From positions 3,224,001 through 3,288,000 of the forward strand of contig CM035351.1 in assembly GCA_020137815.1 (NCBI GenBank): a stretch of DNA of 64,000 nucleotides, read 5' to 3'. The stretch comes from Hormiphora californensis. Its lineage: Eukaryota > Animalia > Ctenophora. The position numbers and the translations under genes were made by a program. The notes below the pieces were generated by a model. That model did no database searches. It saw nothing but the letters and a program-made list of their open reading frames with translations, and had not been told where the DNA came from. Position 1 is the stretch's first letter. Each line of letters begins with the position of its first letter. Shown in pieces: positions 9,586 to 52,295 of the stretch.

Positions 9586-9952
9586 CGCCCCTTCCTACCT
9601 CCCAACTTCTGTTTTTAAACCTTTTTCGTCGCCCTCTGGGCCAGAGGCTCTGGCGAAAAAGCTACTTAGCTCTATCTCTAGAGGTCTGAACGAACTCGAG
9701 TATATGTTTTTCAAATGATAAAAGGTGTTTATTTCCAAAAACAGGTACTCAAAGTCAAACAACTGTACGTACCCGCTGAGCTCAGATAGCAAGCAGAAAG
9801 GCTTGGCTGCCGGCTGCCGGCTGTATTGAAAATTGCCGTTTATACCTGGTAATATCGATCGGCGATCCAGTTCAAGTTCAATCAAAACCGGTGTAGAAAC
9901 TCAAACATATAAATAGGAAACTATTAAGAAACAATTAAACGTGTCTCTGGGG

Positions 9953-10331
9953 TTATCCAGAATTCTGATAGAGCGTTGACCAACTTCCCAGTTTTCTCTC
10001 ATAGATATGGCGTTGTATTGCTGCAACGGTCTTCTCACAGAAAGCTCCTCTTTGGCAGATCCCTAAAACGAAAACGGTAATTTGGATGACAGGTTTAGAT
10101 AATCGTATGTAATGGCGTGCAAAAATATTTTCCTACCAATTCCAAGGCTCCGTTGGGCGTGTGAGATAAACTGTGTCAACATTTCAGAGTTTTCCACCGC
10201 GAGGGGAGAGAATGAGGGGACGAGCTCCAATTCTTTCAACCCAGCCAAGTACTTTCTCAGCGTGGCCCTCAACCTTCCGTATGTCACTTTACAGAGCTTA
10301 CCATCTTCCCTCAAACGCTCCAGGTACCCTC
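9953..10331 (-). pseudogene. Duplicate of the last two coding exons of the STB6-like gene (partial copy or alternative terminal exons)
   Basis: Exons 10331-10137 and 10062-9953 encode the same peptide as 15077-14883 and 14808-14699, and the splice sites are intact. Upstream exons are missing; a repeat begins at ~10397. Confidence 0.7.
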
Positions 10332-10396
10332 CTAAAATTAATAATAATAGGAATGGTTTATCATTGACCGTAGGATTAGATAATCTACATTTAAAT

Positions 10397-11072
10397 GAGG
10401 CATAAACTCTGGCCACTGGCGCGTTATTTCAGATAACTTTCTCCCAGCGTGCCGCTGGGAGAAGTTAGCTGGAGTTTATCCGCCGCTGGCGGATAAACTG
10501 GTTTAAATCACGACGACGATCCCGAGGCGGAGCCGAGGGAGAGGCGGAGGGGTTTAAACCTATAACGTGCCAGTGGTCAGAGTTTATGGGTTATATACCC
10601 TGCTTTAGTTGTTTATTTCAAGTATTACACACCAACAAGAGAGAGAACACTAATCAAAACACACAAAGAGAACTGAGAAATAGTTAAAAACACGTCACAA
10701 TTGAGTGTACACTGTTTGGTAACAGTTACTAAGCAGTTGCTAAGGAAAGAGAGTGAAAGAAATAGCCTGATAAGGGGCATGTCACAAATAACACAGAGAA
10801 AGAGATAGTGAGACAAAAGGGGAGATAAAGAGAGAGTAATTGACGGAATGTGTCCTTTCTTTCTCTCCAATGTAGTGTGTAAGTGTTGCACATAGTGTTC
10901 CCTCTGTATTTTAGTAAGAACTGATCATTTACACACACACTTTGAATGTTACGTAGGAGTTAAAAATAAATAACCTGCCAGTGGGAAATAATCTGCCGCT
11001 GGACTGGCTGTTTACTGAGAGCGCGCTAGTGGGACTTCTCGCCACTGGCGCATTATTTAAGTTAGCAGGGTA
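10397..11072. mobile_element. ~670 bp dispersed repeat with nested hairpins (possibly a non-autonomous Crypton-like element), copy 1
   Basis: A close copy lies at 22096-22759. Internal inverted pairs: ataaactctggccactggc/gccagtggtcagagtttat, ttctcccagcg/cgctgggagaa, agtttatccgcc/ggcggataaact. Contains a ccgaggcggagccgagg motif. The Crypton assignment is from memory only. Confidence 0.75.
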
Positions 11073-11089
11073 ATGGGTATATATATTTA

Positions 11090-11220
11090 TTATGCCAAAA
11101 ACTAACAGAGATTAGTTGGCTGGAAAGGTGACCATTTTGTTGTCAAACTGACACCTTTGCCCTCTCCGGGTTTCATCATTATCTTTCCCTCTCTGATTTC
11201 TATCTCTCTCTTTCAATTTC

Positions 11221-11288
<68 letters not shown>

Positions 11289-11411
11289 CCTCATTTACCC
11301 CCTCATTTACCTCATCGATCATATCCGTAACCCGGGCCGGGCAAAGGTGTCAGTTTGACAACAAAATGGTCACCTTTCCAGCCAACTAATCTCTGTTAGT
11401 TTTTGGCATAA
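11090..11411. mobile_element. MITE-like element: ~72 bp perfect inverted repeats enclosing a (CT)n tract
   Basis: ttatgccaaaaactaacagag...gacacctttgcc is mirrored at ~11340-11411. Confidence 0.75.
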
Positions 11412-11449
11412 TTGGGGTATATTTTTGGTATTTTCTGATCATCTCCCTC

Positions 11450-11739
11450 ATCTCCCATCATCTCCATCATCTCCATCATCTCCATCATCTCCATCATCTC
11501 CATCATCTCCATCATCTCCATCATCTCCATCATCTCCATCATCTCCATCATCTCCATCATCTCCATCATCTCCATCATCTCCATCATCTCCATCATCTCC
11601 ATCATCTCCATCATCTCCATCATCTCCATCATCTCCATCATCTCCATCATCTACATCATCTCCAACATCATCTCCAACTCCATCTCCATCTCCAACTCCA
11701 TCTCCATCTCCATCTCCATCTCCATCTCCATCTCCATCT

Positions 11740-11785
<46 letters not shown>
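11450..11785. repeat. (CATCTCCAT)n 9-mer array grading into (CATCTC)n and (CT)n
   Basis: Directly visible; it generates the spurious MMEMME and SPSSPS ORFs. Confidence 0.95.
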
Positions 11786-11787
<2 letters not shown>

Positions 11788-11849
11788 ATCCCAACTAATC
11801 AACATATTATATGGACATTGGACCCCGTATAACCCTTTTACCTCAGCTT

Positions 11850-13590
11850 CCTGCTAACCCACCTCTGAATCCCTTCTAGCTCAACTCTGGAACCGCCTTT
11901 GAACCCCCTCTGATAGTTTTTTTAATAACAAAATAATCTCTCAGATTCTGTTCCGGAAATCGAATTACTGGGCCAAGATACTATTACTGGGCCAACGTAC
12001 TATGAGCTAAACACCTGAGTAGGGGAACCGTTCACAGCCGCTTCTCATCGCCAGCAGATCTTTATTGATGGATTCACAGACCCTGGTAAGTGGTTCTAGT
12101 CTAGAAGTGGGTTAGCATGGATCCACCTCTGGACCCCTACTAAGCAACTTGTGGACCCCTTTTAACCCACCTCTGAGTCCTTTTACCTTAGCAGTCAGCT
12201 CCCTACTAACTCCCTCTGAAACCTCTCTATTATATCTCACCTCTGGACTCTAACCCACCTTTGAACCCCCTTCTAACCCAACTCTGAACCCCTCCTAAAT
12301 CAACTCTTAACCCCTTTTAACCACCTCTCGACCCCTACTAATTACTACCCCACTCCTCAAACCCTTCTAACCCACCCTTCAACCCCTTCTAACAAATCTC
12401 TCAGCTCAATAATAACCCACCTCCGGACCCCTTCTAACTTACCTCTCGACCCCTTCTAACCCACCCCTAGTCACCTTCTAACCCACCTCTGGAACTCTAG
12501 TAACTCACCTCTCGACCTCTTCTGACTTCTAACCCACCTCTTGACCCCTTACCTATCTCTCGTACCACTTCTAACCCACCTAACAGACCCCTTCTAACCC
12601 AACCGTCAGATGCCTTCTAACTCACCTCTCAATCCCTTTTAGCCCACCTCTCGACCCCTAATAAGTACTAACCCTCCCCTCGACATATTCTAACCCACCT
12701 CTTGACCCCTTTTAAACCACCCCTAAACCCCTTCTAACTCACCTCTTAACCCCTTCTAACCCACCCCTAGACGGACCCCTTCTAACTCACCTCTAGACCC
12801 CTTCTAACTCACCTCTCATTCCTTTTTAGCCCACCTCTCGACCCCTACTAACTTACCTCTCGACCCCTGTTAAACCACCCGTTGTATTGAACACTTTTAT
12901 CCCAACTCTAGTCCCATTCTGACCCACCTCTGTAACCCCCTAGTAACTCACATCTGGCCCCTTCTTACCCCCTTTTGACCCCTTCTATGTTCTAACCCAC
13001 CTCTCGTACCCCTTCTTTCCCACCTCCCGACCTCTACTAAACCATCCCTCGGCCCTTTCTAACCCCTTCTTTCCACCTCCCGACCTCTATTAAACCATCC
13101 CTCGACCCTTTCTAACCCACCTACCGATAGATGGGTTAGAAGGGGTCGGACCTTCTAATCCATCTCCCGTACCCCTTTTAACCCACCTCTCGACCCCTAC
13201 TAACCCACGGCCACCCTTGGTCTCTTCTAACCCACCTCTGAACCTTATCTGATTTCTAACCCACCTTTTGACCCCGTCTAAGTCACCCTACTAAGTATAT
13301 ACCCTTCCCTCGACCCCTTCTAACCCACCTCTCGACCCCTTAATTCTAACTCATCTTTCAACCCACCTATCGACGCCTTTTTACCCACCTCTCGAGCCCT
13401 ATTAAGTACTTACCCTTCCCTCGACCCCTTCTAAACCACCTTTTGACCCCTTCTAACTCATCTTTCAACCCCTTTTAACCCACCTCTAAACCCCTTTTAA
13501 TCCACCTCTCGACTCCTAGTAACTCACCTCTTAACCCCTTCTAACCCACCCCTAGACGGACCCCTTCTAACTCACCTCTAGACCCAACTT
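11850..13590. repeat. Degenerate ~22 bp C-rich minisatellite (consensus approx. CTAACCCACCTCTCGACCCCTT)
   Basis: Dozens of diverged tandem units containing CTAACCC, with a local inversion forming a hairpin at ~13103-13148. Confidence 0.85.
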
Positions 13591-14698
13591 GAAACCCTCA
13601 GACGCTACAAAATAACCCCCAGAGCATAGGCTTATGGTTAGTGGTTGGGCTTTCTTAACAGTACCTATTTCTTTAGATAGTGGAAGGACCCTAAACGCGG
13701 AGATATGGGGCTGGTGGAGAAACAACTCTTCGAATTCAGATTACAGCACGTAGCAGCTTGTGGTACACATTTCTGCGATGTACAACAGATTTGCCTCACC
13801 TAAACTTGGGTTGCCTATATAGACTCAATCACTGATTCCAGGGTAATTTGCCCCAAAATATCAGAGGAAGTGGCTCATGTTATTTATGAAACTTATTGAA
13901 GTTTTTAATATGTTACTAATTATGATTTCATGTTTCTTAATTTTGCCGGTTACCAAACATTAACCAAACCGTTAAACGGTTACCGTTTTATTTTGTGTGT
14001 CACTCTCTGGTACACTTTTGAACTGTGTGGAATCATAACTGTCGCGCGCGGTACTCTTATGATGGTGCTAGCGATGCTAAAGTAAGCAGTGTCAGCAATT
14101 CTAAAGTAAGCAGTGTCAGCATTGGCCGCGGTATTCGCCCCAGGCCCCTTATATTATATTATAAGGGGCCTGCAACGTATGCCAAACAAAAAAGTTAAAA
14201 TTTTCAAATCTTTTTTTACCTCGCAATTCAACGCGAATGCGCGCGCGAGTCGATTTTCAACTGCGCGCCTCTATGTTGCAGCGAAAATTGGCATTTTGAG
14301 ATTTTAGGACGTAACGCGCCGATCAGATCAAGTAAAACTCAGCTTCCTACCTCCCAACTTCCGTTTTTAAACCTTCCTTCGTCGCCCTCTGGCGAAAAAG
14401 CTACTTAACTCTATCCTTAGAGGTCTGAACGAACTCGAGTGTATGTTTTTCAAATGATAAAAGGCGTTTATTTCCAAAAACAGGTACTCAAACAACCGTA
14501 CGTACCCGCTGAGCTCAGATAGCAAGCAGAAAGGTTTGGCTGCCGGCTAGGCTGCACTGCCGGCTGTATTGATCAAAATTGCCGTTTATACCTGGTAATA
14601 TCGATCGGCGATCCAGTTCAAGTTCAATCAAAACCGGTGTAGAAACTCAAACATTTAAATAGGAAACTATTAAGAAACAATTAAACGTGTCTCTGGGG

Positions 14699-17600
14699 TT
14701 ATCCAGAATTCTGATAGAGCGTTGACCAACTTCCCAGTTTTCTCTCATAGATATGGCGTTGTATTGCTGCAACGGTCTTCTCACAGAAAGCTCCTCTTTG
14801 GCAGATCCCTAAAACGAAAACGGTAATTTGGATGACAGGTTTAGATAATCGTATGTAATGGCGTGCAAAAATATTTTCCTACCAATTCCAAGGCTCCGTT
14901 GGGCGTGTGAGATAAACTGTGTCAACATTTCAGAGTTTTCCACCGCGAGGGGAGAGAAGGAGGGGACGAGCTCCAATTCTTTCAACCCAGCCAAGTACTT
15001 CCGCAGCGTGGCCCTCAACCGTCCGTATGTCACTTTACAGAGCTTGCCATCTTCCCTCAAACGCTCCAGGTACCCTCCTAAAATTGATATCATTGACCGT
15101 AGGATTGGATAATCTACAATCTATATTTAGATATTTGTTGTACTTCTACTAGTTTCGTTTTGACAAGGAACTGGTACCTGCACTATTTTGTAGTTTTTGG
15201 AAATCCTGTACCGCAAGTACCACTGCTTCAGATATAACACCATCTATCTCACAGTACCGAGAAAGGAAGTTGAGGTGCCGGAGGAGAAGCTGAATTTCTG
15301 CAAGGAACCTTCTGACTGAATCCTCTGTTTTTGGGTAATAACCAAACTTCAGGGCGATTCTAAAATGTACAATGTCTTAGCGCTTATCTAGAGTACTTAA
15401 TAATAGTAGTATATAAAATAGCTTTACGACGTAAACACTTAGCAGTACATACAATTATCAAATATCACCTGCTCAATGCAGACTTGGGAAGGGAAGTGAG
15501 GGTCCCAGCGGCTACTTTCTGGAGCATTTCCCTCGCTTCATTCTCATCCCATATACCGATTCTCGATAAGGATACAACCAACTCCATAAGTGGTCGGACC
15601 AAGTCAAGGTCGCCCTGCTCCAGATAAAGCCTAAAAGCGGGGTGGAAATTAAAGTGAGAGTGGACCGAATCAGAATTGGACAAGTTTGTTGTAGGTAGTA
15701 GAGATTAGCTTTCTGAGCATTTTGCGTTTTTACCGCTCAAAATCGACCCACCCATCACTGAGATATTTTTGTTATGTTGGGAGAACTCCTGTTTAATCAG
15801 TATGTATAAAACAGAATAGAAACAATCATGGCGTTTTACTAACACATTCTGAATATAAGCAGTGAGGTTGACATGTCCATGCACAGAAGCAGGGCAATGC
15901 AAGCCACCATATCAAAAATTTAATGAATTTACTATGGACTACCTAAGAGGATATTGAGGTATCTTCAGAAGACCCTGAATTCTTGTGTGCGTTTCATTTT
16001 CAATCTAAAGGGACATCAGGATGACTACACAGAATACTACAAGGAGGCACACATTCTACCTATTGAGCAGAGGCTGACTTTCAAGGCATGTCTTTTGGCG
16101 TACAAGATTGTACGAGGCACTGCACCCAAGTATCTGATGGACCTGGTCCCTCGTGATGACAATCCTGAACCTGTAAAACCTACCCGATCTACCTCAGTTC
16201 CAGATTTCTTCAGGTTGAAATATCCAAAGCTCTCAAGTGTAAATGCGAATTCTAAGTTAAGAAGGAGGAGGATCTCTGTATTCCTGCCGGAAGTGTGGAA
16301 CTCCCTGCCATTGGAGTTAAGGTCTGTTCACCCTGTTGAACTCTTCAAGACAAGGCTTAAGACCCGGCTATTTAAGGAAGCTTTCGTTGATCCAGAGAGC
16401 AGTAGCACCTGAGTCATCTCGTCTTTGGGTCACTGGTTCTGTTCTGGTCTGGGTTTAGTGTTCCCCTTAGGCAGACGTTTATTTAGACAGTGTTATTCCT
16501 CATTACATTTACCGGGCTTGCAGTAATAGCTGCTGACTTTTTAATAGCTTTGAGAGCTGCTGTCTTTGAGTAGCATGAGAGCTGCTGACTTTGTAATTTA
16601 GCTTATTCAGTGTGAGAGCATTTTTATGCCTATCTAAGTTGGTTCGTATTTTATGAGGCCCGTTTTTTCATCAATAAAAGTCTATCTATGGTGTGTTTAA
16701 ATCCAGATTTTAATAGTGTGTGTCATAAGTAAGGAAGGTGTTATTATTTAGGTATACCGCTCTGACGCTGAGCAGTGTCAGTCAAAATTCAGTTTGCTGG
16801 CCCTGTTTTGCCTGGGCGGTATACAAAAACTTATATTATTATTATTATTATTAATGTGTTAGTAAAACACAAGGATTGTTTCTATCCTGTTTGATAAATA
16901 CTGATCCAGCAGAAATTCTCCCAACATAACAAAAATATCTCAGTGATGGATGGGTCGATTTTGAGCGGCAAAAACGCAAAATGCTCAGAAAGCTAATCTC
17001 TACTACCTACAACAACCTTTTCCAATTCTGATCCGGTCCACTCTCACTTTAAATGCAACGTAATCAAAGGATTGGTACTATTATATATGGTTATAATAAA
17101 TGACAACACTTACCATTGACATGTCTGTCTGCTCTCACACCGTGCTTAATTCGCCGAATGGACGGACTGCATGACAACACCTACCACGGATAGTTGTTGT
17201 CCGCTGCAGCTGGTGTTTCCTCTTCTACATCAGCATGGAGTAAGGCTATTGCAGAGTCCTTTAATTGTGCAAGATATGACCTAATCGGTGTGCCACTGGT
17301 GTTACCCGCTTCCTCGCCCTCTGCCGCTAAGTGATTATCAGGCAGGGCAAGACATACTGATTTGGTCCCCTCTTCCCCTACCACCACCATCTCCATCACC
17401 CCGTCACTCATCATTTCTTCAAAGTATTCGACCTGGCAAAGAAATGATACCACTTATAAAATAGCGGAGGAGAGTCTTTGTTAACTTTTACATGATCACT
17501 CATCAGTGACAAAATTGCGTAATCACCTTTCATCAGGCCTTTTATGACTTATATCGTCACTTTTTTGTGCTATTGTGTGACTTTACGTTTACCTATTTTA

Positions 17601-18117
17601 ATTTCTACCTAAATGAGCGGATTGTGATGCTACCTGGATATTGCTGATATCAGATCCGAATTTGATCAAACCGCCGTACACTTTGTCTGAAGAGTTCCCT
17701 GTTTCCACTAGTGCTCCCTTGAAAAACTTGTGCTTCTGAAAGAATACGTAAAAGAATAAGTAAAATGTACAGTGACACATCGGTCGTATGATCTCCGTGT
17801 GGTCCACACAATGAAATTGGGTATGATATCCCCTCATTTCTCTCCCTCGCTGCGCTATCCTCTCTCATGATATCGCACACACTACGCTTAGTTAAGCGAG
17901 AGGGGACAGCGTACCCCAAACGATGAAATACCTTGGTAATATTGTCTGCGTTGATGTATAACCTGTACCCGGTCAATGTCATATCTCCGAGATAGAGAAA
18001 TATGTTCTCAGTCGGGATCTCTTCCCGGTACTTCTTCTTGTCAAACACAAAGTACTGTTTGTCACCATTGTAATCAACTTCTTTCAAACTCTGCAAAACT
18101 TTATGTTTACGATCCAT
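14699..18117 (-). CDS. STB2/STB6-like protein with two C-terminal peptidoglycan-binding-like (PGBD) repeats, 394 aa from MDRKH; may be the C-terminal half of the VPS9 gene
   Basis: Exons 18117-17932, 17735-17634, 17432-17185, 15630-15469, 15359-15178, 15077-14883, 14808-14699 total 1185 nt in frame, all GT-AG. N-terminal YFVFDK...LTGYRLYI...ETGNSSDKVYGGL and C-terminal QLLRHLNFL...DGVISEAVVLAVQDFQ...DGKLCKVT...ISHAQRSLGI...GAFCEKTVAAI. The gene model is solid; the family call is by motif recall. Confidence 0.65.
15653..17048. mobile_element. TTAA-flanked (Kolobok-like) MITE with ~200 bp TIRs, interrupted by a LINE
   Basis: ttaa|agtgagagtggaccg...ctaacacatt (15649-15849) is mirrored at 16853-17052 (aatgtgttag...ctctcact|ttaa). 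Confidence 0.8.
15925..16852 (+). mobile_element. 5'-truncated non-LTR retrotransposon (CR1/L2-group LINE): ORF2 C-terminus, 3'UTR and (ATT)n tail
   Basis: ORF 15954-16412 has the L2/CR1-type tail LQ..LNSCVRFIF...HILPIEQRL.FK.CLLAYKIVRGTAPKYL...WNSLPLELR...FKTRLKT. The element ends in (att)n at ~16833-16852. Confidence 0.85.
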
Positions 18118-18255
18118 TTTAATGATAACCACGTAATTGGTAATGTCCAGGACAATCTCACTGATCACAGTTTCGTAAGATTGCTGCTTATAACGTGTGC
18201 ATATAATTGTCACCTAACATTTCCGGGGGTCATCATCATTGTGTCCCTGATATAA

Positions 18256-19974
18256 TTATCCATGACAACGTACCTGTATGTACACACAGGCACCTTCCAG
18301 GCATGTCACGTAGTACCCGATCTCACAGTACCGTAGTTCAGGGTTCAGATATCCTTTTAGGAAGTTCACAAGGGTCGCTAGGTTGGGGATGTTAGCTCGA
18401 ATAATACAAAACACCCAGATGGGTAGAAAGGCATCAGCGCCCATAGCCCCGCCGTTAGCAGATTGAGTGGTCAGATATCGGTGAATATCCTCCGCTGCAA
18501 AACATATGGCCCGCATGATTTTGGTAGGGGTTGTCGAGAGAACGAGTGACTTGAGCCTTGAGATGATACTGATAAATGGTAGGGGTGAGTCACTGATAAA
18601 CTCTTCCGGTATTCCGATCTGGGCCTGGGTGTAGCCACGGAGCCTCCGACACTTGTCCCACGTCTCCCTGTCTTCCTCCTCCTTGGTAACGGTATCCAGG
18701 GCTTCCCGGTAAATCCGGGGCACTATCTTCTGTTCCAGGGCGGCAAAAACAGTCCGCTGGTCCACTGGGACATTAGCAAACTTTAATTTGTCATAGATAT
18801 ACTGGGTCATCGCCTTTACGTACTCCTGATATCGGGAGGGGTTTGCTCCCGGAATACTCTCTGAGTACGCGTCTGCCATGTTGTTTTCGAAGACTAGGAT
18901 GCTCTGCCACTGCTCGTGGTCAGGGTCCTGCTGCCGGGCTGCACACTCCACACACTCTCTGATATACTCCTCAATCTTCCTCCGTTCGAAACTCCGTGGA
19001 TCGCTGAGGATCCTGTCAAGGAGGTCCCTTTGGGAGTTATCCTCCCGGAGGATCTGAGAGAGTTGCCGGTGGATGTTGTCAATATCAGACTTCATTAGCA
19101 CCAGTTCACTCCGCTGCTGGAGCTTCTCACTGATACTTTTCAGCCGCACAATGTCCGTCCACTCTGCCAAGGAGGTGGATGCGGTGAGATCCTGGTACTG
19201 ATCCAGGTTGTGGACGGCTAGAAACTTCCGTTTTGTGGCAACTTTCCTAGTTCGAGCTCGCAACATTTTATCCTGGATGTCAAATACAATGCTTGAGTGT
19301 GTCATCCAATCGTTAAAAGTTCTCAGTCGTAGGTAGGAGGGTGTGACGGAGTTCTTTTCTAGCTGCACCAACTTCTCCAGCATGCCGCTGAGAAAAGCAA
19401 ACTTTATCGAGAGATACCGAGTCCTCAGGTTTAGAATCTCAAGAGTCAGCTGACAGTTGGTAGCAAGGTAATTGGACATACTGGTTGGGAGGCATGTCTC
19501 AAGGAGGGGTGCCGAGTCCAGTGCCTCTCTCTGTTCAGTCAACTTTCTAATTTCATCCAATGCCCCCGAGGAAAGTTCCTCGATCTCATCAATTGTCTCA
19601 CCCACGGAAGGCCCAATTTCATCCAGACTCCCCTCCTCAGAGTTGAGTGATTCATAAAAAGGCGTATCGGCCATCAGCTCAATGGGGTCTCCAATCTTCA
19701 TTGCTTCAAATAGACATATCGCTGTTCTTTTGCCACTGTCAGCACTTCCCTTAGAGGGGAGAGTGTTGCTTCGAACAAATCCCGTTGGTTTGGTTTCCTC
19801 AGCAGGAGCCGGAGGAAGGGAAACAGGTTGCCGGGGTAGACTAGCGAACCCACTGATAGGACCAGTGTTATCAAATGTGCCATAAGGGCCGGTTGGTGCC
19901 TCTCCTGATTGGATGTTGAGGGAGGGGGTGCTGGCTGAGACAGGGTTTGTCAGGCTATACACAAGCTTCTTCAT
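18256..19974 (-). CDS. VPS9-domain protein (Rab5-family GEF); large single exon, both ends uncertain
   Basis: C-terminal VPS9 signature TPTKIMRAI...MGADAFLPIWVFCIIRANIPNL...EIGYYVTCLEGACVYI, preceded by a helical region. First ATG at 19974. A strong donor CAG|gtacgt at 18274/18273 may bypass the stop at 18256. Confidence 0.85.
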   Translation of the reverse strand: MKKLVYSLTNPVSASTPSLNIQSGEAPTGPYGTFDNTGPISGFASLPRQPVSLPPAPAEETKPTGFVRSNTLPSKGSADSGKRTAICLFEAMKIGDPIELMADTPFYESLNSEEGSLDEIGPSVGETIDEIEELSSGALDEIRKLTEQREALDSAPLLETCLPTSMSNYLATNCQLTLEILNLRTRYLSIKFAFLSGMLEKLVQLEKNSVTPSYLRLRTFNDWMTHSSIVFDIQDKMLRARTRKVATKRKFLAVHNLDQYQDLTASTSLAEWTDIVRLKSISEKLQQRSELVLMKSDIDNIHRQLSQILREDNSQRDLLDRILSDPRSFERRKIEEYIRECVECAARQQDPDHEQWQSILVFENNMADAYSESIPGANPSRYQEYVKAMTQYIYDKLKFANVPVDQRTVFAALEQKIVPRIYREALDTVTKEEEDRETWDKCRRLRGYTQAQIGIPEEFISDSPLPFISIISRLKSLVLSTTPTKIMRAICFAAEDIHRYLTTQSANGGAMGADAFLPIWVFCIIRANIPNLATLVNFLKGYLNPELRYCEIGYYVTCLEGACVYIQVRCHG

Positions 19975-21932
19975 ATCGTACAAACAAGAAAAGTATCATG
20001 TTACAAGCCACAGTGAGCTGATAAAATGTCTAATTTTAGTACTCGGGAGTGAAATGAGTACAGACCGAGCCACAATCTGCTACCACCTCACGATTATGTC
20101 ACTACTTGGTCAGTCTCGAAATCTGAAACAAGGTAGTCTCTTAGGTTGACTCCGCTGTCAGAAGTCTCTCTTTCTCACCTCCTCTCCCGTCAAATTCATT
20201 CCGACAGGCTTAATCCTTTTAGGGACAGATTGGGATTGCCTGTCACAATTTAAAGTATTATATTGCCCTTCCCCTAGAAACGAAATTTTATTCTCACTAT
20301 TCAGTGAACACTATTTACACTAAATAACTGCAGCTCTCCCTGTACTATGCACGGGTTGTTTTGTTCAACCCCTTTCTATTTTATTTCTTTCGTGTGTGGG
20401 GCGCGTGAAAGACAGTCTAGCTAGGCAATGCACGGGAACCCTGTCCCAGCAAAGGTCTGGGAGTGGTAGCAAGACGGTTCTTAGCAAATTCTGTAATTTC
20501 TAGCGCAAAAACGAAGACTCCAATATGAAGGAAATAGAGGAAATTGTTAATTTGACCTCAATATGTTGACTATTACTCCATTGAAGTACGTCTTAATGGT
20601 GAGAAACTTACTTTAATCTCTACCCATTTTCAGCTAGATGATCTTCTGAACTGTAATTTCGACAAATTCTAATGCTTCTGATCTCCTTCCCCACGCTAGA
20701 TTTCTCTCATTTCATTGAACGATCAGAAATAGGTGTGCTCTAGACACTGAATTGTTTAAATTAGTTAATTAGTTCAGAAGCTGTTATATATTGGTCCCCA
20801 AAATATTTATTGTTTTGGAGTCACTTGATCCCTCTGATTGTTTCGCCGAGATTATGAACTATAGCTGAATATTCAATAAACTGTGTGGTTGATAGTCGTA
20901 AAATATTTCCCATATATGGAATATAATTTTGGTGCAATCATTGTCTCGCTGAGTGGTTGAACAATAGTATGTTATATCTGAAGGCGACACCTCAGTGGGC
21001 GACATATTCAGAGTGTTGTGATTATTACCTTATTATACGCTCTACTCTCTATACGTTCAGTATATAACAGCACTAGGTTGGGTACCTGGCACCTGTAAAC
21101 TAGGTGTAAATAAACGATGTTCGCTAGACGATAATATTCATGAATTCATTTTGATAGTCTAATACTAATGCTAATATTTTAATCTTCCTCTCAAGCTAGT
21201 ATTATTGCTCAAGGTCTAAAGTCTAAGTGTTTTGAAAAGAGAAAAATTTAATAACTTAAAATCTCATCGTGTGACAGCTTATTCAGAGAGAAAGAGAGAT
21301 TAATTTGAGGCCGAGGACTGTGTTTTAGGTTTTATAAGTTCGCAGAATCTAGTCTTTTAATCCAATCCCATTGTCCCAGCTAGTTGAGAGCACATACAAC
21401 TTTCACAAACGTAAACATTTCATCTCGCCTTGTGTTACCACTCGTGCCTTCTAATCTCAAAGCTAACAACTATTTATACTTTGTTAAAGTGTGAAATGAC
21501 TGAATCGATATCCAAGTTGATAAGGCGTGCAACTGCGCCAGTTCTCTATCGCTGCAGTCCCATTTTGCGAAGTTCGGAAAATGACGATCTTAAAAGGTAA
21601 CTTTTCCGATTTGTAATCTGTCACGTGGTTTGTCACATGGTCTGAATTTTAAGTACGTGACTACTGATGTATACCTGAAATCGTTGACCGCAAGGCCAAC
21701 TTCGACTTCCGGGAATCATCGCGTCTGTAGTAGCTCAATGCATGTATATTTGGAGTCCGAGTAATGGGCTAGATTTAGCAGGTGGAGGGATCGCGATTTC
21801 TCTCCGGGCGACCACACAAACTCGGTTGCCATGGAAATGTTCACTACCGTCCACCTGTATTGGCTACTTCCATATTAGAAGTTAGCAAATATAAATATCT
21901 TGGTTTAGTACCTGCAATACTGCACTCCTGAT

Positions 21933-52295
<30,363 letters not shown>

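Follow-up and report, generated by a model that had tools for sequence, protein, structure and literature searches.

In Rabex-5 (RABGEF1), yeast Vps9 and Arabidopsis VPS9a, a helical bundle is followed by a VPS9 domain with characteristic Asp, Pro, Glu, Tyr and Thr motifs, and then by an accessory region. The roles of the motif residues are known from Rabex-5: Asp and Glu are catalytic, while Pro, Tyr and Thr make switch contacts. In yeast Vps9, guanine nucleotide exchange factor (GEF) activity is lost in a D251A/E288A double mutant, and localisation is governed by a CUE domain located behind VPS9 (PMC4454180). A different architecture is found in the fungal Stb2/Stb6 proteins, in which PF25995 and PF28231 (named STB6_N and STB2_C, respectively, in the Atlas) occur together and STB6_N is followed by helical repeats resembling peptidoglycan-binding domains (PGBDs), without any VPS9 domain. 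Here we describe a gene of the ctenophore Hormiphora californensis that appears to combine the two. It lies on the minus strand of a 64,000-nucleotide stretch (GenBank assembly GCA_020137815.1, contig CM035351.1, positions 3,224,001 to 3,288,000; hereafter the window, in whose coordinates all positions are given), has 8 exons and 7 introns, and with an acceptor at 18090 encodes a predicted product of 952 amino acids (aa). Our preferred reading, to which we assign a probability of roughly 0.6, is that this protein is a cytosolic Rab5-family GEF carrying a non-catalytic, STB6-type targeting module.

The VPS9 half is encoded in exon 1, where the domain scored 57.8 bits against PF02204 (cut-off 27) and is preceded by a helical bundle. 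Its nearest solved structures were Rabex-5 (E 6e-7) and Arabidopsis VPS9a (E 9e-4), and the Rabex-5 alignment spans both the bundle and the VPS9 domain and continues past the exon junction into exon 2. Moreover, the motifs A-D-x-F-L-P and E-x-G-Y-Y-x-T match Rabex-5 residue for residue; the conserved Asp is aa 514 (near 18435) and the conserved Glu aa 551 (18324), which we take to be the counterparts of D251 and E288 in yeast Vps9. These key residues are kept in the ctenophore protein and in the other aligned fused proteins described below, with the exception of the copy from Anaeramoeba flamelloides, whose lack of the Asp motif counts against the preferred reading. Judged from its sequence, the VPS9 domain of the ctenophore protein is likely to have GEF activity. 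The A. flamelloides protein (P0069) carries a charged insert where the Asp motif would be, and its VPS9 domain is possibly a pseudo-GEF.

The hallmark accessory domains of Rabex5, GAPVD1, Varp, Alsin and RIN were not found in the ctenophore proteins: no A20 zinc finger/CUE, RasGAP, ankyrin, MORN/DH-PH or SH2/RA domain was detected at Pfam E ≤ 5 in any of the four full-length ctenophore proteins. Instead of the A20 zinc finger or CUE of Rabex-5 and Vps9, the ctenophore protein has a module made of STB6_N and two PGBD-like repeats. Because many Vps9 subfamily members lack hallmark domains, as stated in the survey by Herman et al. 2018 (PMC6032885), their absence does not exclude membership in a subfamily clade.

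A search with the exon 1 protein returned nine proteins, two of which are full-length and fused (P0001, the Pleurobrachia bachei model, and P0006, 887 aa), whereas four (P0002-P0005) end just past the same donor and three end earlier. Cluster look-ups added two more fused proteins, from Bolinopsis microptera (P0010, XP_063684260.1, 1006 aa) and Mnemiopsis leidyi (P0016, KAL5268196.1, 1001 aa). In all four full-length ctenophore fusions (P0001, P0006, P0010 and P0016) VPS9 is joined directly to the module, and in P0001 the Pfam VPS9 match itself continues across the exon 1/exon 2 junction. From these homologues, the VPS9 domain and the module are almost certainly parts of one fused protein. The alternative, i.e., two neighbouring genes or a VPS9-only form as the main product, could draw on an in-frame stop (18256), an ATG (18117) and an ATTAAA within intron 1, as well as on the four matches that end just past the donor and the lack of junction reads. 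However, these four short forms run into the GT donor (Q or R followed by V), which is how genes predicted from genomic DNA without splicing should look, and four ctenophore plus six other full-length proteins are fused; together with the P0001 match across the junction, this makes separate genes or a predominant VPS9-only product highly improbable. A VPS9-only isoform ending in intron 1 is possible.

A preliminary description of the window, made from the letters alone, had proposed seven exons (18117 down to 14699) that join in frame to 394 aa. This chain held up: the seven GT-AG exons (18117-17932 down to 14808-14699), read from the ATG at 18117, give 394 aa and contain no stop other than the terminal one. 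So did the donor of the VPS9 exon, CAG/gtacgt at 18274, where the Pfam VPS9 match has reached profile position 100 of 104; exon 1 thus extends from the ATG at 19974 to this phase-0 donor. The same description had led the two parts together through acceptors at 18213 and 18183 and the residues MDRKH into a single protein of about 990 aa. While one fused protein is retained and both acceptors exist in frame (993 and 983 aa), none of the four full-length ctenophore homologues uses them, and the length becomes 952 aa with the acceptor at 18090. Among the four acceptors tested, 18090 scored highest against each of the four homologues, all of which pass from ACVYI(Q/S) directly to the residues starting at 18090, and single-exon genomic fragments from other genomes (P0033 and P0054) start at the matching boundary. 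The acceptors at 18213, 18186 and 18183 were rejected, as they would insert 31-41 residues missing from all four homologues. Since the homologues fit the acceptor at 18090, the MDRKH ATG at 18117 falls inside the 183-nucleotide intron 1. This splice model has points against it: the pyrimidine tract of the 18090 acceptor is moderate (6/12), intron 1 carries the in-frame stop and the ATTAAA, and no junction-spanning RNA appeared in three RNA runs, whose matches were only short or divergent and hence uninformative. Splicing was judged from homologues because these runs showed no junction.

We searched a profile of the ctenophore C-terminal halves over 1.84 billion representatives, which gave 59 matches, and traced the sources of 18. 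Among these 18 were six VPS9-module fusions from outside the ctenophores, while several other matches among the 59 were multi-PGBD proteins aligned to one repeat only, or fragments. A profile built without fungi (A3) retrieved one protein of Podila (E 4.6e-29) and one of Dentiscutata (E 5e-15), fungal proteins that each carry PF25995 and PF28231; the fused protein of Anaeramoeba ignava carries PF02204 and PF25995, and its domain matched fungal STB6_N clusters in the Atlas at template-modelling (TM) scores of 0.66-0.73. In a profile-profile comparison, A3 matched the fungal pair with a probability of 99.6% over 255 columns. The spliced module scored 83 bits on a profile of the non-ctenophore fusions (at most 4.2 for 200 shuffles), a value that is partly circular since these members were retrieved with the ctenophore profile, and 43 bits on a profile of fungi and dictyostelids (at most 1.4 for 200 shuffles). 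The STB2/STB6-like character that had been proposed for this region was thereby borne out, and the module's assignment to the STB6 type is well supported by sequence comparison but transitive. In addition to the circularity just mentioned, two results speak against it: the direct match between the ctenophore and fungal profiles is weak (probability 62%, E 7.5e-5), and on a profile of the two fungal proteins the spliced module scored 2.2 bits, inside the shuffle range. A direct Pfam scan for STB6_N was uninformative, in that even the fungal PF25995 proteins gave no STB6_N match, and the P0006 module, used as the query of a word-based search, retrieved no protein besides P0006 itself. The last word-based search returned three proteins from 7,992 scored candidates, with lengths of 666-2000 only, and fungal sampling is therefore thin.

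The fungal proteins and their dictyostelid relatives (five from named dictyostelids, plus a EukProt protein of similar type) resemble the ctenophore protein in that PGBD-like helical repeats come after a homologous STB6_N domain, but differ in lacking VPS9 and in having a long C-terminal region, which corresponds to PF28231 in fungi and contains a hydrophobic segment in dictyostelids. The ctenophore protein, unlike them, ends after repeat 2: the gene model stops 13 residues past the module envelope, and the precomputed domain lists of the fused proteins P0001, P0006 and P0071 contain no STB2_C. A strongly hydrophobic C-terminal segment occurs in five of the six dictyostelid-type proteins (maximal 19-residue hydropathy 2.1-2.6) and in none of the fused proteins (at most 1.64 in 11 of 11; 1.46 in the gene model), and no signal peptide or segment of transmembrane strength was found in the predicted protein.

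To view the module in three dimensions, we used an AlphaFold2 model of the P0006 module based on 34 alignment rows (predicted local distance difference test, pLDDT, 83.7; predicted TM-score, pTM, 0.80), in which only the ctenophore-specific insert was left unresolved; a full-length model from a four-sequence alignment was unusable (pLDDT 37.7). The module is predicted to begin with a GGCT-like barrel, a feature absent from the preliminary description, and to continue with two PGBD-like repeats of three helices each. Residues 9-181 of P0006 matched the GGCT superfamily, with the top five of 48,161 chains at Z 7.6-8.5, although Z values of 7-8.5 are close to the tool's stated background. Individual structures gave Z 8.5 (YtfP), 8.3 (YkqA), 7.9 (allophanate hydrolase), 7.6 (PH0828) and 6.6 (human GGCT), and superpositions on the family had a root-mean-square deviation (rmsd) of 3.1-3.7 Å over 104-126 residues at 9-16% identity. 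The Atlas entry for P0071 agreed moderately on a GGCT-like fold (TM 0.42-0.49 by query). What the module's N-terminal domain shares with the GGCT-like superfamily (YtfP, YkqA, GGCT, GGACT, ChaC) is a predicted fold, with no sequence-level match to structures: PDB sequence searches with the module profiles gave nothing below E 0.09. An NCBIfam scan gave weak PGBD-related matches only, and Atlas feature searches gave PGBD leads below 0.9 or none. Besides the background level of the Z values, the fold assignment is weakened by the use of a homologue's model in place of one of the window protein, and by Foldseek, which ranked the GGCT family first with no match at E ≤ 0.001.

GGCT catalysis requires two features, a YGSL motif that follows strand 1 and a Glu that ends the cavity helix (PMC12569754). 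In the present module, F-D takes the place of YGSL behind strand 1 (in relatives, C/F/S/T plus E/D/Q), and helix 85-96 contains no conserved acidic residue, the catalytic site having been mapped by secondary-structure register and conservation and not by residue-level superposition. Because neither YGSL nor the helix-end Glu is conserved by this register, the modelled domain is probably a pseudo-enzyme, and STB6_N would thus receive its first fold assignment, as a likely GGCT-family pseudo-enzyme. That the domain is instead an active enzyme, acting on an endosomal substrate by cleaving its γ-glutamyl or isopeptide bonds, would accord with the consistent structural matches to GGCT, GGACT, ChaC, YtfP and YkqA and with an invariant Tyr, an invariant Gly and a near-invariant Arg that the domain keeps; with the catalytic motif replaced and the acidic residue not conserved, however, we find this improbable. 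A precedent for a non-catalytic role exists in Paulinella crTPpart2, a GGCT-like copy that serves protein targeting.

The two PGBD-like repeats that the preliminary description had noted fared unequally. Repeat 1 is supported by both profile and fold: exon 15359-15178 alone matched PF01471 (E 3.9e-5; 24.2 bits, cut-off 23), and repeat 1 of the model (P0006 residues 224-305) superposed on bacterial and phage PGBDs with Z 6.6-7.4 at 2-3 Å, including SleB, SltB3 and AP3 endolysin (Z 7.0-7.4, rmsd ~2 Å). Repeat 1 also follows the PG_binding_1 pattern D-G...T...F-Q...G-x-L...T, with the signature residues present over 15 rows in the order D 12, G 13, T 13, F 15, Q 11, G 11 and T 11, although Val replaces the conserved Thr in this gene's copy. 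Repeat 2 (P0006 residues 304-378) is PGBD-like but degenerate in ctenophores: the PGBD of CtpB (Z 6.0), calponin-homology domains (Z 6.0) and the pro-domain of a matrix metalloproteinase (MMP; Z 4.8) matched it about equally, and it has no Pfam match in this protein, while PG_binding_1 was called in the Pygsuia counterpart (E 4e-7). The three-helix fold of repeat 1 is shared with PG_binding_1 of SleB, SltB3, phage endolysins and CtpB and with MMP pro-domains, in a cytosolic setting that sets the ctenophore protein apart.

These repeats raise the question of whether the module could be a cytosolic sensor of bacterial wall fragments, its PGBD-like repeats and GGCT-like pocket binding peptidoglycan or γ-glutamyl muropeptides that become exposed at digesting or damaged phagosomes, where Rab5 would then be switched on. 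In favour of such a sensor, repeat 1 retains most of the PGBD signature and superposes closely on bacterial and phage PGBDs, relatives score well above the PF01471 cut-off, and the fused forms are found in predators and bacterivorous protists. Yet, as the protein lacks a secretion signal, membranes would have to be damaged before it could encounter peptidoglycan; the conserved Thr is Val here, and all four full-length ctenophore proteins fall below the PF01471 cut-off or have no match. In addition, the same fold occurs in MMP pro-domains, which are not known to bind peptidoglycan, and the module is kept in fungi, which do not phagocytose. For the non-catalytic GGCT-like crTPpart2 of Paulinella, muropeptide binding could not be shown (PMC12569754). 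On balance, we consider a wall-fragment sensor unlikely.

We therefore return to a GEF with a targeting module, for which we consider the following mechanism the most likely. The VPS9 domain, going by the biochemistry of such domains, would eject GDP from Rab5, Rab21 or Rab22, whereupon GTP loading would follow. The module would bind a partner on the membrane side, either a protein or a modified peptide and perhaps within the former GGCT pocket, and this binding would set where the GEF acts, likely at an endosomal or phagosomal membrane, by analogy with the CUE domain of yeast Vps9. Fungi and dictyostelids would have kept the module without VPS9 and with a different C-terminal region, which in dictyostelids may serve as a membrane anchor. 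What is reported of yeast Stb2 speaks against this mechanism: by a database description quoted in PMC4959659, it binds Sin3 in two-hybrid assays and resides in a large complex with Sin3 and Stb1 (it is also a table entry in PMC10647699). Conceivably, then, the module ties the ctenophore protein to Sin3 chromatin complexes and its VPS9 domain is degenerate or secondary, a possibility in line with the automatic name 'Sin3 complex subunit' of the Atlas clusters. However, the VPS9 key residues are kept in all aligned fused proteins but that of A. flamelloides, the C-terminal hydrophobic segment of the dictyostelid relatives points to membranes, and the fused proteins stop after repeat 2, without the long fungal C-terminal region. 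A Sin3-bound role thus seems to us quite improbable.

The fusion is not confined to early-branching animals. The six non-ctenophore fusions come from the cnidarian Nematostella vectensis, the breviate Pygsuia biforma, the provoran Ancoracysta twista, the ancyromonad Fabomonas tropica and the metamonads A. ignava and A. flamelloides, those of Pygsuia, Ancoracysta and Fabomonas being transcript assemblies by their record names. All fusions have the order VPS9 then module, and over nine fused proteins the spacing from the GYY motif to the module is 24 residues in ctenophores and 29-31 elsewhere (A. flamelloides, in which the motif was not located, is excluded, and the module start of P0001 is misplaced, exon 3 being missing). 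Similarity also extends upstream of VPS9, with aa 168-566 matching Nematostella (E 3e-45) and aa 120-564 matching Pygsuia (E 3e-28). Compared with P0001, the VPS9 halves of five of the six non-ctenophore fused proteins scored 75-102 bits (all but the degenerate one of A. flamelloides), whereas Rabex-5 scored 30.9 bits; the ctenophore VPS9 domain is thus far closer to those of the protist fused proteins than to Rabex-5.

Ctenophores and Nematostella grouped together in both the module tree (94/95) and the VPS9 tree (97/98). The former comprised 30 rows and left out P0001, most short ctenophore fragments, multi-PGBD matches and bacterial rows. Since both halves group ctenophores with Nematostella, vertical descent is favoured, and we infer, without regarding it as proven, that the fusion is ancient and vertically inherited. 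The ancestor of animals, breviates, ancyromonads, provorans and metamonads stood near the eukaryote root, and the fused proteins probably represent an unrecognised Vps9 subfamily dating from near the last eukaryotic common ancestor (LECA). On the other side, the base of the module tree is not resolved and the VPS9 tree contains no outgroup VPS9 sequences. Along with the patchy distribution, the former would also suit fusions that arose repeatedly or spread by gene transfer and are no ancestral relic, and ankyrin repeats have become attached to VPS9 on at least three independent occasions (PMC6032885). With an identical domain order, near-identical spacing, similarity that reaches upstream of VPS9, an animal clade recovered from both halves and seven introns in the gene, we hold repeated origin or transfer to be rather unlikely. 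A recent transfer from bacteria or fungi was set aside as disfavoured by the trees (with no bacterial rows among the 30), and no relatives turned up when contigs from metagenomes, viruses and prokaryote genomes were scanned, an approach that detects close relatives only.

Several further sequences in this data set deserve mention. In the module tree, the fragments P0048 and P0060 are sister to ctenophores, and P0041, P0042, P0053 and P0076 group with Nematostella; P0059, left out of the tree, resembles P0048. These module fragments hint at further animal lineages with the gene. The Ancoracysta twista protein (P0063) has an F-actin capping protein beta domain ahead of VPS9 and the module, which may reflect an additional fusion or else a chimera in the transcript assembly.

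Herman et al. 2018 placed three, possibly four, Vps9 subfamilies in the LECA, and the main text makes no mention of peptidoglycan domains, STB proteins, ctenophores, Nematostella or Pygsuia (PMC6032885). We found no publication on a VPS9-STB6 or VPS9-PGBD protein in literature searches that covered few subscription papers, the broad ones being judged on their top-ranked results. The pairing is nevertheless already implicit in annotation (PF02204 with PF25995, in Anaeramoeba), and what is new lies in its recognition and interpretation. Conserved as it is across animals, provorans and metamonads, the architecture is a candidate for a further ancient subfamily, lost by model organisms, and an ancient trafficking regulator has likely been overlooked. 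It also offers a lead for yeast Stb2/Stb6, which may act with Vps9/Muk1 and Vps21 on endosomes. A bolder combination of these elements, which we put forward as speculative, is that a Vps9 subfamily dating from the LECA or close to it uses a dead GGCT domain and two PGBD-type repeats to recruit Rab5 activation to prey phagosomes, possibly by recognising wall fragments. Ctenophores, cnidarians, breviates, ancyromonads, provorans and metamonads would have retained this subfamily, which would be absent from the yeast and human VPS9 sets. Fungal Stb2/Stb6 would be its VPS9-less descendants, with a function in endosomal traffic and not in Sin3 chromatin complexes.

Coordinates of the gene's exons, its first intron and its VPS9 core within the window
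Feature	Position	Strand	Content and evidence
Exon 1 (aa 1-567)	18274..19974	-	Open reading frame (ORF); low-complexity N-terminus, long predicted helical/coiled region, helical bundle, VPS9
VPS9 domain core	18274..18570	-	PF02204, E 1.5e-15; residue-level match to Rabex-5 structures
Intron 1 (183 nucleotides)	18091..18273	-	Contains stop 18256, acceptors 18213/18183, MDRKH ATG and one ATTAAA
Exon 2 (aa 568-620)	17932..18090	-	VPS9 tail and start of STB6_N/GGCT-like domain
Exon 3 (aa 621-654)	17634..17735	-	Predicted GGCT-like barrel strands; homologue alignment
Exon 4 (aa 655-736)	17185..17432	-	End of predicted cavity helix and ctenophore-specific low-confidence insert
Exon 5 (aa 737-790)	15469..15630	-	Predicted last strand and helix of STB6_N, linker helices
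Exon 6 (aa 791-851)	15178..15359	-	Predicted first two helices of PGBD-like repeat 1; PF01471, E 3.9e-5
Exon 7 (aa 852-916)	14883..15077	-	Predicted remainder of repeat 1, then opening helices of degenerate repeat 2
Exon 8 (aa 917-952)	14699..14808	-	Predicted last helix of repeat 2; stop codon

Exon 1 is identical to the P. bachei model at 554 of 567 residues, and exon 3, which that model lacks, is present in the three other full-length ctenophore homologues. Protein identity to the P. bachei model is 96-100% for exons 1, 5, 6 and 7 and 83-84% for exons 2 and 4; exon 4 consists mostly of the variable insert, but exon 2 encodes the start of the GGCT-like domain. An AATAAA lies downstream of exon 8, at 14472.

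Intron 4 contains an element (15649-17052) bounded by inverted 200-nucleotide repeats (15649-15848 and 17052-16853, 92%), between which lies a plus-strand ORF of 161 aa (15927-16412) with no Pfam match, which resembles the terminal part of a retroelement ORF. Portions of this element have matches of ≥99% among RNA contigs of aquatic metatranscriptomes, and several of the short or divergent matches from the three RNA runs fall inside the intron-4 repeat.

Elsewhere in the window, a minus-strand segment at 9591-10389 is a copy (91.6%) of the gene's last two exons and 3' flank (14343-15118), in whose coding part five base differences in four codons are all synonymous and the acceptor and stop are intact. 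Joined directly to it, 10392-11072 (minus strand) is a copy of 22091-22758 (89.8%). Candidate explanations for the combined copy (9591-11072) are a deleted tandem duplicate, an alternative pair of last exons and a haplotype in the assembly. Upstream of the gene, the minus strand at 21600-22100 holds several GT-AG bounded segments that look like exons of a neighbour or of the 5' untranslated region, and just downstream, at 11000-13600, lies a degenerate tandem array with a strong strand skew.

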